IMG/VR virus record: IMGVR_UViG_2585427777_000025 | From: a virus | Taxonomy: Duplodnaviria > Heunggongvirae > Uroviricota > Caudoviricetes | DNA length: 10,970 bases | Reading direction: 5' to 3' (one strand) | Shown here: positions 1 through 10,970 of the stretch, piece after piece | Numbering within the stretch: position 1 is the stretch's first letter | How the letters are laid out: each line of letters starts with the position of its first letter | The notes under the pieces: model-generated | The model's input: the letters and a program-made list of their open reading frames with translations, nothing else | What the model was told of the DNA's origin: nothing | The model's database searches: none | Translations under genes and position numbers: made by a program

Positions 1-1284
1 TTACAGACTTCTGGAAGGTTGCGCAGCTCTTACAACACGCGGTTGATCTTCCGCAGCGTCTTCCAGCGCACTTAAATCACGGTCTTTCACCTCTGGCATT
101 TTCAGCGCAGAGATTAAACCAATCACTGAATATGCCATGATCATAATGGCGATCGGATACCAGGATTCCGTCATGGTGCAGAAAATCCCCGCCAGGATAG
201 GACCAAAACCGGAAGCGATAAGACCACCAATTTCTTTAGAAATAGCCATCCGGGTAAAGCGGTTTTTACAGCCGAACATTTCTGCCATGGTAATGTTTTC
301 CAGAGCAAATAATCCCAGCACCGCACAGTTATGAATCACAATCAGTGCAACCATAATGGTGCTCGGGGCATAGCTTTTATCTACAATGATAGAAAGCATT
401 GGCCATGCCAGCACAATCGCGGAGGTATTCATAATAATATACGGGATCCGGCGACCAATTTTATCGGATAACCAACCAAGGAACGGAATGGTCATAAAGC
501 CGAGAATCGAACTGATCATCAATGCATCTGTTGGAATTGCTTTGTTAAACAATAACGTCTGCACTAAATAGCCTGCAAGGAAAGTCTGAATTAACCCGGA
601 GTTACCCGCCTGACCAAAACGCAGCCCTGTTGCCAGCCAGAAGGATTTGCTCTGGAACATGCTACCAGCAGGTGCAGGTTTTGCTGTCGGTTGGTTACTG
701 TCGTTAACCTTCTCAAAGACCGGGCTTTCTTTCAGATTCATACGCAACCAGATAGCAAAGACCATCACGACAACACTCGCCAGGAACGGTATACGCCATC
801 CCCACGCCAGCAGTTCCTCTTTACTGAGAATGAAGAACATAAAGGCCCAGATTGCCGTTGCGCTCAAGGTTCCGCAGTTAGTTCCCATAGCCACAAATGA
901 GGAGATAATTCCGCGCTTACCTTTTGGCGCATATTCCGCCAGCATCGTACCGGCACCGGAAATTTCCGCACCTGCACCCAACCCCTGAATAATACGCAAC
1001 GTCACCAGCAAGATGGGTGCAAAAACACCAATCTGTGCATAGGTCGGTAACACACCAATTAAGGTGGTACAGTTCCCCATCATGGTGATGGTAATAAAGA
1101 GCACTTTTTTACGCCCTATTCTGTCGCCCATTTTGCCGAAAATAAATGCTCCGACAATACGCGCCACATAACCTGCACCGTAGGTTCCCATTGCCAGAAT
1201 TAACGCCATTGCCGTTGATGATTCAGGAAAAAATATTTCATGAAACACTAACGCTGCGCCGAGCGAATATAACTGGAAATCCAT
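1..1284 (-). CDS. ydfJ: MFS-family metabolite:H+ symporter (ProP/KgtP-like), N-terminally truncated at the prophage junction
   Basis: 427-aa ORF in the track with multiple hydrophobic segments and the MFS loop motif GKMGDRIGRKK. By my recalled alignment to ProP it lacks about 28-35 N-terminal residues. An in-frame TGA sits two codons upstream of the ATG (plus 1288-1290), so the frame cannot extend. No obvious Shine-Dalgarno sequence. Stop codon is at 1-3. Confidence 0.85.
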   Translation of the reverse strand: MDFQLYSLGAALVFHEIFFPESSTAMALILAMGTYGAGYVARIVGAFIFGKMGDRIGRKKVLFITITMMGNCTTLIGVLPTYAQIGVFAPILLVTLRIIQGLGAGAEISGAGTMLAEYAPKGKRGIISSFVAMGTNCGTLSATAIWAFMFFILSKEELLAWGWRIPFLASVVVMVFAIWLRMNLKESPVFEKVNDSNQPTAKPAPAGSMFQSKSFWLATGLRFGQAGNSGLIQTFLAGYLVQTLLFNKAIPTDALMISSILGFMTIPFLGWLSDKIGRRIPYIIMNTSAIVLAWPMLSIIVDKSYAPSTIMVALIVIHNCAVLGLFALENITMAEMFGCKNRFTRMAISKEIGGLIASGFGPILAGIFCTMTESWYPIAIMIMAYSVIGLISALKMPEVKDRDLSALEDAAEDQPRVVRAAQPSRSL

Positions 1285-1888
1285 AATTCACAGGTGTTTT
1301 TTCCCATCCTGTGGTTTCCTTAGCGTTTTCTAGGTTTTTTCAGATAGTTGCATTTTTTTAAAAAGCATCCTAAGTTCGATCTCAGTGTCTATCTGGGGCC
1401 TATTTCTGTCCCATATATGCCCCAAAAAAACTCCCCAACAGATAAGTAGTTTTTTCATGGATTTATGCGTAAAATCAAGAACGGCTGGAAATCATTCAAT
1501 ACTCACACTATCGAAAAATTTACCAGCCAATCGCAGCACGTTCTTGCATAAGGCGTGTCTGCGGTTTTTCAACTATTCAGATACATCACTCCCATCACAT
1601 TCATTCCTCCGCATCAAAGGCATATAGGCTATATCACCTTGATATTTTTCTTTTTCAGATAAAAACTGTTATCTATGTATACTTTTAAACCCAATCCGTG
1701 TAGAGTCTCTGCATAAGATAGTTTGCAGTTGCCGCTTCAGCTTGCGCCATAAACCGCCTGATTTTTGCTGCCACCTGTTAGCATTCCTGTATACCTGAAA
1801 CGACAATGTTTATCTACGAACTTTAAGAACACCCAAGATAAAAATTGTCAACTATATCATATATAACACATTACTAATTCGAGGCTAT

Positions 1889-2002
1889 ATGAACAGCATA
1901 CTGATAATCACATCTCTCCTTATCATATTCAGCATTTTTAGTCATGCCCTAATAAAATTAGGGATTGGCATATCCAATAACCCAGACAAAACCGATGTAT
2001 AA
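1889..2002 (+). CDS. hypothetical small hydrophobic protein (37 aa, single predicted transmembrane helix)
   Basis: ATG at 1889 preceded by GAGG 4 nt upstream; my translation is [37 protein letters not shown], ending at TAA 2000-2002. Lies 68 bp upstream of the ydfK-like gene on the same strand. Below the size cutoff of the ORF track; no homology evidence. Confidence 0.25.
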
Positions 2003-2070
2003 GTCAACATATCCTGAATCAGACATACAATATCGCAATGAAAATCAATAATATTTTAAGGAATATCTTC

Positions 2071-2304
2071 ATGAAATCAAAAGACACCCTAAAGTGGTTC
2101 CCTGCGCAGCTTCCTGAAGTAAGAATTATCCTAGGGGATGCTGTAGTGGAAGTAGCAAAACAGGGAAGACCTATCAATACCAGAACATTGCTTGATTACA
2201 TTGAAGGAAACATAAAGAAAAAATCATGGCTGGATAACAAAGAATTATTACAAACAGCGATATCAGTTCTTAAAGACAACCAAAATTTAAATGGTAAAAT
2301 GTAA
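2071..2304 (+). CDS. ydfK: YdfK/YnaE-family small prophage protein (cold-shock-inducible family)
   Basis: 77 codons from the ATG at 2071, which has AAGGA 8 nt upstream; the track ORF 2038-2304 starts at an upstream ATG with no RBS. Sequence MKSKDTLKWFPAQLPEVRIILGD... matches my memory of YdfK/YnaE, which sit next to pin at the ends of Qin and Rac. Confidence 0.8.
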   Translation: MKSKDTLKWFPAQLPEVRIILGDAVVEVAKQGRPINTRTLLDYIEGNIKKKSWLDNKELLQTAISVLKDNQNLNGKM

Positions 2305-2620
2305 TATAATAAACTTACTTTTTTATCATTTTTCCACTTTAACAACATTTTGCTCCACTTTTCCACGACCAAACAACTTGAAATCTGGTTAAAATAACAC
2401 GCAACACTATTCTTCTTCCTTGAGTCCGCCCGGAACTCGAAAAACAAACCGAGTTAAAGCCATTTTTCACAAAATCGATTTTGGGTCTCACCAAAATTAC
2501 GGGGTTGCATACGCATTCGTTTATTTTCGAACGTGTACATACAAATATGCACAAAAATAATCATAATTATTTTCTGAGATGCATTATGATATGAACACCA
2601 ATTTCGTATAGAGTCTCACT

Positions 2621-3211
2621 ATGTCTCAAATTTTTGCTTACTGTCGGATATCAACGCTGGATCAGACCACCGAAAATCAACGCCGGGAAATCGAAAGTGC
2701 AGGTTTTAAAATCAAACCTCAGCAAATAATCGAAGAACACATTAGCGGCTCAGCAGCAACCAGTGAGCGTCCTGGTTTTAACCGGTTGCTTGCTCGCCTG
2801 AAATGTGGTGATCAATTGATTGTGACAAAACTGGATCGCCTTGGTTGTAATGCAATGGATATCAGGAAAACAGTGGAACAACTGACCGAAACAGGTATCA
2901 GAGTACATTGCTTAGCATTGGGGGGCATTGACCTGACCAGTCCAACAGGAAAAATGATGATGCAAGTAATTTCAGCAGTCGCTGAATTTGAACGAGACCT
3001 TTTACTTGAACGCACTCATTCCGGGATAGTAAGAGCCCGCGGCGCAGGGAAACGTTTTGGTCGACCACCTGTGTTAAATGAAGAACAGAAACAGGCGGTA
3101 TTCGAACGAATTAAGTCAGGTGTAAGTATAAGTGCCATTGCCCGGGAATTCAAAACCTCGCGGCAAACCATTTTAAGAGCCAAAGCAAAACTTCAGACAC
3201 CTGACATATAA
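2621..3211 (+). CDS. pinQ: serine recombinase (resolvase/invertase family), PinQ/PinR-like
   Basis: 196-aa ORF with the N-terminal catalytic motif Y-C-R-I-S-T-L-D-Q (serine recombinase Y-x-R-x-S-T-x-x-Q), the conserved [12 protein letters not shown] segment and a C-terminal helix-turn-helix region ([19 protein letters not shown]). Motifs look intact. Confidence 0.85.
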
Positions 3212-3308
3212 AAAATAATCTCGGTGTGAGATGCTTTACGTCTTCCAAGCCCCCTTCCTTGCCGTAAATGGAAAGATACATCTAATTATAGAATTTATAT
3301 GTTTTACC

Positions 3309-3884
3309 CTACGGCAGTGCTGGCCATTCAATATCCTGTGCAGTTGACGTATCAACACGGTTCAGCAATACCCGATACTTTTTCCATGCTTCCAGCAACG
3401 AGATTTCTTCCTCCGTTGCAATTTCCAGATCTGCAGCATCCTGAAGCGGCGCAATATGCTCACTGGCTACCTGCATCAGGTTGTTTTTTGTTTCTTCCGC
3501 CTCCCGGATCCGGAACAGTTTTTCTGCTTCCGTATCCTTCACCCAGGCTGTGCCGTTCCACTTCTGAAACTCCCCTTCCGGCGATAACCAGGTAACATTT
3601 TCCGGTAACGGACCGAGTTCAGAAATAAATAACGCGTCGCCGGAAGCCACGTCATAAACCGTTTTACCCCGATGATCTTCAACGAGATGCCACGATGACT
3701 CATCACTGTTGAAAACAGCCACGAAGCCAGCCGGAATATCTGGCGGTGCAATATCGGTACTGTTTGCTGGCAGACCTGTATGAGGCGGAATATATGCATC
3801 ACCTTCACCAATAAATTCATTAGTTCCGGCCAGCAGATTATAAATTTTTATGGTCCGTGGTTGTTCACTCATTCTGAATGCCAT
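3309..3884 (-). CDS. tfaQ: tail fibre assembly protein (lambda Tfa-like)
   Basis: 191-aa ORF beginning [24 protein letters not shown]..., collinear with lambda Tfa as I recall it. Its ATG (3882-3884) overlaps the stf stop (3884-3886) as TAATG, suggesting translational coupling. Confidence 0.85.
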
Positions 3885-4846
3885 TATGCAAGCCTCACAA
3901 TATAGTTAAATGCGATGTTTTTGACGGTGTTTTCCGCGTTACCAGCAGCGTTAACGGTGATGGTGTGTCCATGTGAACCAATCGCAACGGAGTGCGTATG
4001 AGCACCAATACCGACAGTATGTGCATGTGCGCCTGCGCTTGCAGCAGTGCCGGACAGCGAGTGGGTATGAGCACCATCTGATGATGTCTTCCCTGCATTA
4101 CGAGTCTGGCCACTACCGCTTGTTGTGCTCATAATCCCCGCGCTTAGATTTGAAATCGCGGTATAACCATTAGGGAAAATGCTCGTGTTCGTGCCACCAA
4201 ATGCACCGGAACTCTTGTGTTGGTGCGCACCGGCACTATTTGCGGTCCCGCTAATACTATGGGTATGCGCCCCGGTGTTATTCGTGGATTTGGTTCCGTA
4301 ATCAAACGACGATGTGGTTTTCGTCCCCAAATCCGTACTGGATGCGCTGGCGCTGTGGGTGTGCGATTTAATGCCGTCCTGTTCCTGAGATAATACGGCC
4401 CGACCACTGGCGGGCTTGCCCTTAATCGTCCAGCCACGCATATCAGGGATCACGCCTGACGGATAAGCAACTGCAAGTTTCGGGTATGCAGATTTGTCAA
4501 AAGTCTGCCCCTGCATCAGGGCATAACCAGACGGAACGGTATCTGATGGCCACGGGATTGGTGCACCGACTGGATAAAACTCTGCAGGAGGATGAGCCGA
4601 GGTGTAAAGCTGCGCCCACGGCGACCAGTTTGCGTCGGTCGTATCCCGTCGTGAACGAATAAATGCCGGAGCATGAGCACCGCTTGTACCACTCCAGCCG
4701 ATGAGTAACTCACCTTCGCCAACGGCTGTCATCCCTTTCAGGTGAATGATATTTCCATACGCTGTTGGATATCCGTTGTTATACACCTCGTATAACTCAA
4801 GACCTGCTGCCCCCTGCGTATTGTCTGTCAGCGCGGTTAACCTCAC
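3884..4846 (-). CDS. stfQ: side tail fibre protein, C-terminal (distal) fragment; 5'-truncated remnant
   Basis: Open frame 3884-4855 in the track (323 aa, TTG start). A GTG at 4844-4846 would give 320 aa. Both candidate starts lie inside sequence derived from capsid gene E; the stf-derived sequence begins around 4837 ([12 protein letters not shown]...). The C-terminal half is rich in GAHTHS / AGAHAH repeats typical of tail-fibre tips. No shaft or baseplate-attachment domain is present. Confidence 0.7.
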
Positions 4847-5024
4847 CGGAAACAATCGGCGAAACGTACAGCGCCATGTTTACCAGTCCCGGAATTTGTG
4901 AGAGATAGACTTTCTCCGTGGTGAAGGGATAGCTCTCACGGAAAAAGAGACGCAGAAACAGCGGATCAAACTTAAATTTCTGCTCATTTGCCGCCAGCAG
5001 TTGGGCGGTTGTGTACATCGACAT
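4838..5024 (-). pseudogene. E: major capsid protein E, N-terminal 62-codon remnant
   Basis: Track ORF 4797-5024 begins MSMYTTAQLLAANEQKFKFDPLFLRLFFRESYPF...VSPIVSGEV, matching the lambda gpE N-terminus as I recall it, then diverges after codon 62 into 13 out-of-frame codons and a stop. Lies about 56 bp downstream of D, as in lambda. Confidence 0.8.
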
Positions 5025-5038
5025 AAAAAAATCCCGTA

Positions 5039-5060
5039 AAAAAAAGCCGCACAGGCGGCC
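5039..5060 (-). terminator. candidate stem-loop with U-tract between D and E (weak intrinsic terminator or mRNA processing/stability element)
   Basis: On the minus strand just after the D stop: GCCGC-CTGT-GCGGC (5-bp GC stem, 4-nt loop; plus 5046-5059) followed by T7. The stem is short, so termination is likely partial at most. Coordinates may be off by 1. Confidence 0.3.
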
Positions 5061-5080
5061 TTTAGTGATGAAGGGTAAAG

Positions 5081-5413
5081 TTAAACGATGCTGATTGCCG
5101 TTCCGGCAAACGCGGTCCGTTTTTTCGTCTCGTCGCTGGCAGCCTCCGGCCAGAGCACATCCTCATAACGGAACGTGCCGGACTTGTAGAACGTCAGCGT
5201 GGTGCTGGTCTGGTCAGCAGCAACCGCAAGAATGCCAACGGCAGCACCGTCGGTGGTGCCATCCCACGCAACCAGCTTACGGCTGGAGGTGTCCAGCATC
5301 AGCGGGGTCATTGCAGGCGCTTTCGCACTCAATCCGCCGGGCGCGGTTGCGGTATGAGCCGGGTCACTGTTGCCCAGCGGCTGGTAATGGGTAAAGGTTT
5401 CTTTGCTCGTCAT
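5081..5413 (-). CDS. D: head decoration protein (lambda gpD-like)
   Basis: 110 codons from the second ATG ([27 protein letters not shown]...), matching lambda gpD length and sequence from memory; the track ORF starts two codons earlier (MFM...). Begins 9 nt after the C stop. Confidence 0.9.
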
Positions 5414-5422
5414 AAACATCCC

Positions 5423-6028
5423 TTACACTGGTGTGTTCAGCAAATCGTTAACGGCATCAGATGCCGGGTTACCTGCAGCCAGCGGTGCCGGTGCCCCCTG
5501 CATCAGACGATCCAGCGCAGTGTCACTGCGCGCCTGTGCACTCTGTGGTGCTGCGGCCAGAATGCGGCGGGCCGTTTCCACGGTCATACCGGGGGTTTCT
5601 GCCAGCACGCGTGCCTGTTCTTCGCGTCCGTGAGCCTCCTCACAGTTGAGGATCCCCATAATGCGGCTGTTTTCTGCCGCAACCGCTGCGGTGATCTGCG
5701 CGTTCACGTCCGGCTGCGCCGCGCTGGCGTTTTCGCCCTCCGTCGCTGGCACCACGTCAGTAACGTCAGCCTGCGAAGCAGTGGCTGAAACAGTTGTTGA
5801 TTGAGTCTCTTTGGTCATTCGCCCTCCTGAGAGACGGGATTTACGTGCATCCAGTGCATCACGCATGACGGTGATCGCATCGGTGCTGTTAACAAGTTCA
5901 TCAGCCAGTCCGGCATCAATGGCCTCCTGACCGCTGTACACTGCAGCCTCGGTATCCAGCACAGCCTGCACGGACAGGCCGGTATATGCCGACACCTTCT
6001 GCGCAAACATCTGGCGGGTTGCGTCCAT
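5423..6028 (-). CDS. nu3: scaffolding protein Nu3-like, in-frame internal start within C
   Basis: In-frame ATG at 6026-6028 (MDATRQMFAQKVSAYTG...) gives 201 aa sharing the C stop, the nested arrangement known for lambda C/Nu3. No strong Shine-Dalgarno seen; assigned by position and length. Confidence 0.55.
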   Translation of the reverse strand: MDATRQMFAQKVSAYTGLSVQAVLDTEAAVYSGQEAIDAGLADELVNSTDAITVMRDALDARKSRLSGGRMTKETQSTTVSATASQADVTDVVPATEGENASAAQPDVNAQITAAVAAENSRIMGILNCEEAHGREEQARVLAETPGMTVETARRILAAAPQSAQARSDTALDRLMQGAPAPLAAGNPASDAVNDLLNTPV

Positions 6029-6722
6029 CCGGGACTGCAGTGTCTCCCGGACGTCATCCGGAAGATGGCTGTAGGGGTTGCCATCCACCTTATGGCTGCC
6101 GCTGTAAATCAGAGTGATTTCCACACCCTGTTTCTCCAGCGCAGCACCGTAATTACTGTGAGCCATCATGACGCCGATGGAGCCTGTCCGGGCGGTCTGC
6201 GTGACCAGACGCCGGGAGGCGGCACTGGCAAGCAGCTGACCTGCACTGCAGTTCATGTCGTTGGCCAGCGCCCATACCGGTTTTATGTCACGCACACGGG
6301 CGATGATGTCAGCGCAGTCAAATGCCCCCGCCACCATCCCGCCGGGCGTGTCCATATCGAGCAGAATGCCGTCCACCATCGGATCGCTGGCAGCCTGTTG
6401 CAGACGGGCGATAATGCCGTTGTAACCGGTCATCCCCGAGTACGGCTGCAGCGCCCGCGTCCGGCTGACCAGCGTGCCGGACACCGGCAGCACGGCGATG
6501 CCGTTCATGACCTGATAACTGCGGGCCTGTCGTGGTCCGTCATCATCACCGGATAATGCCAGCGTCGCGAGTGCCTCCTGGGCAGTCAGGCTGTCGCCGG
6601 ACACCGCATCCATCAGGCGGCTGATCCCAAGCTGGCCTGCAAGCGCACAAAAGAAAACCCGCGCATAGGCGGGTTCAAGCATCAGCGGCTCATTAAAAGC
6701 CATGCTGGCAATATGCGGGAGA

Positions 6723-6742
<20 letters not shown>
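5423..6742 (-). CDS. C: prohead protease / minor capsid protein (lambda gpC-like, ClpP/S49-like fold)
   Basis: 439 codons from a GTG at 6740-6742 (VTAELRNLPHIASMAFNEPLML...), preceded by GAGGAGGAGAAGA; the track ORF extends further upstream in frame through the overlap with B. The start overlaps the end of B by 20 nt. Confidence 0.9.
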
Positions 6743-10424
<3,682 letters not shown>

Positions 10425-10450
<26 letters not shown>

Positions 10451-10970
10451 TCAGCAACCCCGGTATCAGTTCATCCAGCGCGGCTGCTTTGTTCATGGCT
10501 TTGATGATATCCCGTTTCAGGAAATCAACATGTCGGTTTTCCAGTTCCGGAAAACGCCGCTGCACCGACAGGGGGATCCCGTCGAGAATACTGGCAATTT
10601 CACCTGCGATCCGCGACAGCACGAAAGTACAGAATGCGGTTTCCACCACTTCAGCGGAGTCTCTGGCATTTTTCAGCTCCTGTGCGTCGGCCTGCGCACG
10701 CGTAAGTCGATGGCGTTCGTACTCAATAGTCCCTGGCTGGAGATCTGTCTCGCTGGCCTGCCGCAGTTCTTCAACTTCCCGGCGCAGCTTTTCGTTCTCA
10801 ATTTCAGCATCCCTTTCGGCATACCATCTTATAACGGCGGCAGAGTCATAAAGCACCTCATTACCCTTGCCACCGCCTCGCAGAACGGGCATTCCCTGTT
10901 CCTGCCAGTTCTGAATGGTACGGATACTCGCACCGAAAATGTCAGCCAGCTGCTTTTTGTTGACTTCCAT
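10425..10970 (-). CDS. nu1: terminase small subunit (lambda Nu1-like)
   Basis: 181-aa ORF MEVNKKQLADIFGASIRTIQNWQEQGMPVLRGGGKGNEVLYDS..., with the N-terminal winged-HTH DNA-binding region. The start codon is the last 3 nt of the window, so cos and any upstream sequence lie outside it. Confidence 0.9.

Follow-up and report, generated by a model that had tools for sequence, protein, structure and literature searches.

The stretch of DNA analysed here (the window; 10,970 nucleotides of the Caudoviricetes record IMGVR_UViG_2585427777_000025 in IMG/VR) represents the end of a defective, Qin-type lambdoid prophage that is inserted in ydfJ of Escherichia coli, and the gene of interest is pinQ, a small serine recombinase gene at 2621-3211 that converges with a tail-fibre assembly gene (tfa) next to a fragment of a side tail-fibre gene (stf). 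An original prediction, made from the sequence alone, had described the recombinase as intact, had set it beside the tail-fibre invertases of Mu, P1 and e14, and had offered three readings of it, namely an orphan acting in trans, a relic of a lost switch, or a resolvase-type enzyme with an unrecognised target. From the evidence given below, pinQ is most probably the stranded resolvase gene (tnpR) of a decayed Tn3-family transposon, which has lost its native reaction at the resolution site (res) and survives in trans with weak or no DNA cleavage. The encoded protein is 100% identical to PinQ of E. coli K-12 (b1545, Qin prophage) and differs in 2 residues from PinR (b1374, Rac prophage). The gene and its role in trans are already known, and the finding as originally posed is not novel; the transposon remnant, its target-site duplication and the arginine-to-cysteine change of the enzyme were not found in the literature searched.

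The transposon remnant and its resolution site

The gene lies within an element that consists of the following features:

2416-2420, no strand: target-site duplication, left copy (TTCCT), the same as 3255-3259, directly outside the terminal repeats
2421-2458, plus strand: left terminal inverted repeat (IRL), degenerate, matching the canonical inverted repeat (IR) GGGGTCCGCTTGGAAAACGGAAAATATCCCACGCTAAG at 24/38 positions in the expected orientation
2508-2611, plus strand: putative decayed res, with site I at 2508-2533, site II at 2549-2578, and site III and the promoter region at 2589-2611
2621-3211, plus strand: pinQ, an open reading frame (ORF) of 196 amino acids (aa), encoding a small serine recombinase of the TnpR resolvase clade with the Pfam domains Resolvase and HTH_7
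2846-2848, plus strand: codon 76 of pinQ, TGT (Cys), at the position of the catalytic arginine (R71 of the Tn3 and gamma-delta resolvases, R69 of Sin)
3217-3254, minus strand: right terminal inverted repeat (IRR) with a 3-nt deletion; its reverse complement, GGGGGCTTGGAAGACGTAAAGCATCTCACACCGAGATT, aligns with the canonical 38-bp IR
3255-3259, no strand: target-site duplication, right copy (TTCCT), identical to the left copy

A complete member of the parent transposon family is present on the IncI/K-type plasmid pRM10386-2 (NZ_CP028124.1), where an element of 3,814 bp (record coordinates 43394-47207) is bounded by perfect 38-bp terminal IRs (GGGGTCCGCTTGGAAAACGGAAAATATCCCACGCTAAG) and a 5-bp target duplication and encodes a PinQ homologue of 83-84% identity. 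Three further copies are found in Shewanella baltica (CP002811/CP002813), two of them with matching 5-bp duplications, and related elements of this compact 3.8-kb transposon also occur in Hafnia and Klebsiella. The third S. baltica copy (CP002811.1, 2611248-2618838) has the non-matching flanks ATAAA and TATTA, which could have arisen by recombination between copies.

The anatomy of the remnant was observed directly by comparison with these elements. Homology between the window and the plasmid element runs past the ORF for approximately 95 bp upstream and 45 bp downstream, and the downstream homology to the transposon stops exactly at the outer GGGG of IRR. In the plasmid and Shewanella copies, the canonical 38-bp IR directly follows the tnpR stop codon, an arrangement that the window shares, together with a decayed counterpart of the res layout upstream of tnpR. 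At the other end, IRL is the second-best IR match in the entire window, behind IRR; its local alignment stays collinear across the IR and for some 9 nt past it and reaches a score of 28-30, compared with a mean of 18, a 95th percentile of 23 and a maximum of 31 in 300 shuffles. The pentamer TTCCT flanks the element likewise in K-12 Qin, K-12 Rac, phage Turner and an O145 prophage, and intact copies of the parent family likewise generate 5-bp duplications. Since matching TTCCT copies stand outside both repeats, the cassette is a transposase-less transposon derivative. It measures 834 bp (2421-3254), comprises IRL, the decayed res, pinQ and IRR, and is placed 54 bp beyond the tfa stop codon. A tblastn search of the window with the 994-aa transposase (TnpA) revealed no tnpA remnant, and the gap from IRL to what is left of site I is just 47 bp. 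Because its IRs are degenerate, the element is probably immobile, with the resolvase gene and a remnant of res being kept. The pinQ and pinR loci of K-12 resemble the window in gene order (ydfK/ynaE, pin, tfa, stf), in their IRs and target duplication, and in a cysteine at residue 76.

When compared with seven independent family members (60-87% mutual protein identity), the res region of the window proves collinear with their 160-bp tnpA-tnpR intergenic region and shows no insertions or deletions. In these seven members, half-site cores of the form GWMCGAAA/TTTCGKWC are located at about -113, -97, -73, -51, -33 and -20 from the start codon. The inverted pair at -113/-97, 26 bp overall, is, on the analogy of Tn3, the presumptive crossover site (site I); the cores at -73/-51 form another inverted pair, and the cores at -33 and -20 surround a TATAAT box. 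Site I measures 28 bp in Tn3 and gamma-delta and 26 bp in the parent family of pinQ, and in both groups tnpA and tnpR diverge from a multi-site res that contains a half-site of the TGTCCGAAA type. In the window, however, every res core carries 1-3 mismatches relative to the family; the left half of site I reads ATACGCAT and is lost, an example of the parent transposon's site I being TGACCGAAAACGACCGGTTTCGGACA, and a search of the entire window for an intact site I gave no match. With decayed cores and no intact site I, the cis site of PinQ is a vestige without a partner site. The suggestion of a resolvase with an unrecognised target is thereby given a concrete form, in that the target is the family res site, whose copy upstream of pinQ has decayed. 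A scan of the window with the family res half-site gave 10 matches against 4.9 expected, none of them upstream of pinQ at ≤2 mismatches, and the matches were treated as chance. Inside pinQ, TGACCGAAACAG (2883-2894, plus strand) is a family half-site with one mismatch, lies in the LTETG codons, and is probably fortuitous or codon-driven. A 20-bp insertion splitting site I, which appeared in a first MAFFT alignment, was dropped; later alignments show a collinear, decayed region.

Family placement and residue changes of PinQ

In an alignment of 16 proteins, PinQ shares 35-37% identity with PinE (e14), Gin (Mu), Hin and PinL (phi80), which among themselves share 43-77% (65-77% for PinE, Gin and Hin alone), and 31-32% (31-36% overall) with the Tn3 and gamma-delta resolvases; its identity to TnpRs that adjoin Tn3-family transposases, by comparison, is 77-83%. 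The identity matrix and a neighbour-joining tree place PinQ within the transposon TnpR clade, far from Gin/PinE/Hin/PinL and from Tn3/gamma-delta, so that the earlier impression of a resolvase-like rather than Gin/Hin-like protein proved correct. Residues 4-144 match Pfam Resolvase (E 2.5e-36) and residues 147-190 match HTH_7 (E 2e-11). The best matches in the PDB are Gin (106 bits) and gamma-delta resolvase (84 bits); despite these scores, PinQ groups with neither of them when judged by sequence comparison. Homologues on plasmids are numerous, with about 250 plasmids at 80-90% identity and 1,513 at 60-80%. Those of 77-79% identity in Shewanella, Hafnia and Klebsiella are divergent from a 994-aa DDE_Tnp_Tn3 transposase gene across the 160-bp intergenic region, and the order tnpA-res-tnpR is the classical layout. 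A scan of genome contigs with exact peptide words returned mostly E. coli copies, and the diverse relatives were obtained by a search for the encoding contigs.

Gin, PinE, Hin and PinL resemble PinQ in the small serine recombinase fold, in domain order and in a GRPP-type arm, and enzymes of this kind, which are Fis/enhancer-dependent invertases, adjoin phage tail-fibre genes as PinQ does. Unlike them, PinQ has neither 26-bp crossover sites on its flanks nor an invertible segment, in addition to its low identity to the group. The copies in complete transposons share with the window a near-identical DNA-binding domain; they differ from it in possessing tnpA, intact res half-sites, an arginine at R71, and the R/R/E combination at the R2, R32 and E56 positions of Tn3 resolvase. 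Tn3/gamma-delta and the intact members of the parent family have in common the conserved catalytic residues and those located at the positions of the 2-3' interface.

One of the changes lies in the active site. PinQ reads LDRLGC where all comparison proteins (15/15) read LDRLGR, and the codon at the R71 position is CGT in the transposon copies and TGT in pinQ. Among the 120 best homologue clusters, 112 have arginine at this position and 5 have cysteine, all of the latter being prophage-type and including clusters of 2,148, 1,066, 374 and 359 sequences. Cys76 is common to PinQ, PinR and a diverged prophage lineage (cluster P0009), which is 84% identical to PinQ and has the same pin-tfa-stf arrangement; the substitution is therefore old and shared. 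The description of the recombinase as intact accordingly holds for the open frame, the Resolvase and HTH_7 domains and the Ser11 nucleophile with the other conserved active-site residues, and does not hold for the second LDRLGR arginine. In terms of the Tn3 catalytic set, PinQ has counterparts of Y6, R8, S10 and R68, has Glu at the D36 position, as does the entire clade, and is deficient at R71 (Cys76). Tn3 resolvase no longer recombines when it carries R71A or R71K, and its cleavage is slower by about 1000-fold or more, although binding and synapsis persist (PMC2794168). In Sin, Arg69 is the likely general acid (PMC6007550), and the work of Keenholtz et al. 2013 on the general-acid arginine is cited by way of PMC6007550 and PMC4499144.

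Further changes are spread over the protein, since PinQ differs at 17 positions where the five closest transposon resolvases agree, 9 of these being positions where all eight clade members agree. Three of them, R3Q (2627-2629), R35Q (2723-2725) and E61K (2801-2803), correspond to R2, R32 and E56 of Tn3; the residues there are R/R/E in 8/8 clade members and likewise R, R and E in Tn3 and gamma-delta. According to work attributed to Hughes et al. in 1990 and to Murley and Grindley in 1998, R2, R32 and E56 reportedly form the 2-3' interface that is needed for assembly of the res synaptosome. Not all prophage copies carry the full set; PinR retains R3 and the large cluster P0001 retains E61, while Q35 is present in all prophage copies examined. 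Two more changes of the prophage lineage are located at the Tn3 M103 and V107 positions, where mutations activate resolvase. The C-terminal DNA-binding domain, by comparison, is nearly as in the transposon enzymes. Substitutions R2A and E56K belong to the deregulated 'NM' resolvase (PMC2794168).

Selection on the gene has been relaxed and is still detectable. Between two Cys76 prophage lineages, 27 synonymous and 35 non-synonymous differences yield a dN/dS of 0.36 (binomial p = 3e-4 against neutrality), compared with 0.08 between TnpRs; judged from these sequences, constraint is about four-fold relaxed relative to the transposon TnpRs, yet real, so PinQ would still do something. Thousands of genomes keep the frame open, as do two lineages whose proteins differ by 16%, and more than half of the complete E. 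coli genomes contain pinQ or pinR.

Tail-fibre neighbourhood and reported action in trans

The genes around the element, two of which are tail-fibre genes outside it, are as follows:

2038-2304, plus strand: ydfK
3309-3884, minus strand: tfaQ, a tail-fibre assembly gene (Caudo_TAP, E 3.6e-43), so named in matching genomes; outside the transposon element
3884 to about 4842, minus strand: C-terminal fragment of the side tail-fibre gene stfQ, with a Collar domain; outside the transposon element

The convergence of pinQ and tfa with 97 bp (3212-3308) between the two stop codons is as originally described, and so is the lack of a second cassette, the whole window containing one tfa and one tail-fibre C-terminal fragment. 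Crossover sites had not been found by eye, and systematic searches agree with this. Inverted and direct repeats in 1900-5100 were limited to chance-level pairs, the top inverted pair having 24 nt and 75% complementarity; the hix/gix/cix/pix consensus at ≤3 mismatches gave 0 matches in the window, and the same pattern gave 0 in a Qin-like prophage with full-length stf and 0 in K-12 Rac, while the two e14 pix sites, which served as a positive control, were recovered. A gix-like 8-mer, AAACCGAG, noticed by eye at about 2447-2454, was rejected and belongs to the IRL-like sequence. The pinQ-tfa junction is unbroken in 2,647 of 5,426 complete E. coli genomes, and the sampled partial matches start inside tfa, with none breaking within the pinQ-tfa spacer; as a result, the population data give no hint of inversion at this place. 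The invertible segment of Mu and of e14 adjoins the invertase gene (gin or pinE) at its 5' end, whereas in pinQ the res remnant and an IR lie at the 5' end and the tail-fibre genes lie beyond the 3' end. On the most probable reading, the place of pinQ beside tail-fibre genes would be an accident of transposition, and a local invertible segment would never have existed.

The action of the protein in trans is known from experiments on the identical K-12 protein, which bear out the suggestion of an orphan enzyme acting at a distance. Kirigo et al. (NAR 2025; PMC12529663) report that over-production of PinQ raises the inverted fraction of the 1,797-bp P segment of e14 from about 30% to about 88%, and that deletion of pinQ lowers both P-segment inversion and survival of T2. 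The inverted P segment produces a chimeric StfE2 that blocks T2 adsorption, and no effect is seen when stfP, stfE or e14 is deleted (PMC12529663). Deletion of pinE locks the P segment even though pinQ and pinR are present, and over-produced PinE gives 49% inversion (PMC12529663). Neither the main text nor the Table S4 legend of that report was found to contain a test of PinQ in a pinE-null background, a catalytic-serine mutant or an in-vitro assay. When compared by eye, the pix half-site TCTCCCAAACC and the family res half-site TGTCCGAAACC agree at 9/11 positions with a 1-bp register shift. Given Cys76 and the resolvase ancestry, PinQ might act at pix in more than one way; direct weak catalysis is possible, and the alternative is that PinQ binds pix-like sites and biases PinE instead of cutting DNA itself.

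Three rival explanations have to be weighed against the reading of pinQ as a stranded resolvase gene. The proposal that PinQ is left over from a tail-fibre switch of the Mu, P1 or e14 type, whose second stf/tfa cassette and crossover sites were deleted, draws on its position next to stf-tfa, on the true switches of e14 and Mu, and on the Pin-type pinL that phi80 carries beside tail-fibre gene fragments. Nevertheless, the gene is enclosed in what remains of a transposon, with its terminal IRs and a 5-bp target duplication, PinQ is of the wrong clade, its tail-fibre genes are at the 3' rather than the 5' end, no pix/gix-like site is found even in relatives with full-length stf, and the viable phage Turner has the identical single-cassette arrangement; this proposal can hardly be maintained, and the comparison with Mu, P1 and e14 that inspired it was misleading given the transposon remnant and the resolvase clade. 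A functionless, slowly decaying remnant, effectively a pseudogene with an open frame, would explain the lost tnpA, the decayed res, the missing catalytic arginine and the relaxed constraint (0.36 against 0.08). However, the frame has stayed open in thousands of genomes and both lineages, dN/dS remains significantly below 1 after the R-to-C change, and deletion and over-expression have phenotypes in K-12 (PMC12529663), which together render this explanation rather improbable.

A stronger competitor, although still an unlikely one, is that PinQ is a fully competent invertase, which would act through its own catalysis at the e14 pix sites in trans and use the Fis-bound enhancer inside pinE. The rise from about 30% to about 88% on over-production, the deletion effects and their dependence on stfP, stfE and e14 (PMC12529663) all speak for it, as does the likeness of the pix and res half-sites at 9/11 positions. 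The locked P segment of the pinE deletion, at first sight contrary to a competent PinQ, could reflect a lost enhancer. In Gin and Hin systems, the enhancer is inside the invertase gene; by analogy, loss of an enhancer inside pinE would be compatible with the locked phenotype. On the other side, a cysteine replaces the catalytic arginine, PinQ is only 35-37% identical to the enhancer-dependent invertases, and wild-type resolvases of its type require two full res sites in direct repeat (PMC2794168). Moreover, the P segment stays locked in the pinE mutant despite the presence of pinQ and pinR, an equilibrium-limited enzyme would be expected to reach approximately 50%, as PinE does with 49%, and not 88%, and the discriminating experiments named above were not found in the main text or Table S4 legend of PMC12529663.

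Several points nevertheless weigh against a stranded resolvase with little or no catalysis. Taken alone, IRL is weak (24/38, with few of the 300 shuffles reaching its score), and it was accepted because of its position, its orientation and the flanking 5-bp repeat. An empty target site is absent from the 5,426 E. coli genomes, so that the insertion has no before-and-after comparison; the insertion is therefore taken as old and fixed in the phage module. The role of the Tn3, gamma-delta and Hin reference sequences was limited to that of outgroups and of a frame for residue numbering, and the R2/R32/E56 positions are presumed to belong to the 2-3' interface. The catalytic effect of the R-to-C change is extrapolated from Tn3 resolvase and Sin, and by the same analogy slow catalysis by over-produced PinQ is possible. 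The Tn3 R71 mutants are 'not inert' (PMC2794168), and the over-production and deletion effects on the P segment in vivo (PMC12529663) speak for an active recombinase.

On the preferred reading of pinQ as a stranded tnpR, the history of the locus may be reconstructed as a series of losses. In a forerunner of the phages of the Rac/Qin type, a Tn3-family transposon would have inserted past the stop codon of tfa and duplicated TTCCT; its transposase gene would then have been lost, leaving the 834-bp element of IRL, res, tnpR and IRR. Cointegrate resolution at res would have been lost in turn, because site I and the accessory sites are degenerate and without a partner site, because R3Q, R35Q and E61K occupy regulatory positions of the 2-3' interface, and because the catalytic arginine (Tn3 R71) is a cysteine. 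PinQ would persist as a DNA-binding protein acting in trans with weak or no strand cleavage, the loss of catalytic power and the way in which it acts in trans being inferred and the effect on e14 being taken from the literature. A more speculative extension, put forward tentatively and thought less likely to be right than wrong, is that PinQ and PinR are 'ex-resolvases', deprived of their res site, their 2-3' regulatory interface and their general-acid arginine, which lambdoid prophages keep as sequence-specific DNA-binding or synapsis proteins instead of catalysts, and which would bias or trap PinE-catalysed inversion via pix-like sites. The published shift of the e14 P segment to one orientation would then stem from this binding. 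On the same view, a further role for PinQ might be to repress the parent transposon's relatives arriving on IncI/K plasmids, or to interfere with them.

Annotation and prophage context

These results have consequences for nomenclature and mechanism. Both pinQ and pinR are named and discussed as Pin-type invertases, while they are described here as stranded Tn3-family resolvases without the catalytic arginine, and this resolvase origin, together with Cys76, bears on the mechanism of the 'recombinase-activated phage defence' reported in 2025. In annotation, the label 'pinR' is at times given to transposon resolvases, and the opposite confusion also occurs. In two genomics papers of 2026, the label 'pinR' stands alongside Tn3/tnpR terms in Klebsiella and gram-negative resistance contexts, and pipelines may perhaps name transposon resolvases 'pinR' by the homology described here.

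The remainder of the window conforms to a defective prophage. The annotated gene order in matching genomes is ydfJ-ynfT-ydfK-pinQ-tfaQ-stf, and in the window the stfQ fragment is joined by deletion to the N-terminus of the capsid E gene, with head and terminase genes beyond; at this capsid::stf junction, stf homology stops at 4842 and homology to the major capsid gene begins at 4833-4834. The exact junction was found in none of the complete E. coli genomes searched. K-12 Qin matches 1-4839 and 10442-10970 of the window and does not contain 4840-10441, which makes the prophage of the window the less deleted of the two, and the nohA::stfQ deletion of K-12 has its stf-side endpoint within 3 bp of the capsid::stf junction of the window. 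The large terminase subunit is represented by two overlapping ORFs on the minus strand, 8981-10450 (489 aa) and 8524-9183 (219 aa), and this split (8524-10450) suggests a frameshift, in keeping with a defective prophage. In the 3' half of tfaQ, on the same strand as tfa, the Rfam family IS009 (RF02111) gives a full-length match at 3343-3541 (minus strand; 220.9 bits against a gathering score of 117, E 3.8e-55). The GC content is 34-41% at 1500-2750, the region of ynfT, ydfK and the sequence upstream of pinQ, against 57-63% in the head genes at 5250-8500, a contrast that fits a mosaic accessory ('b-region'-like) module at the end of the prophage.

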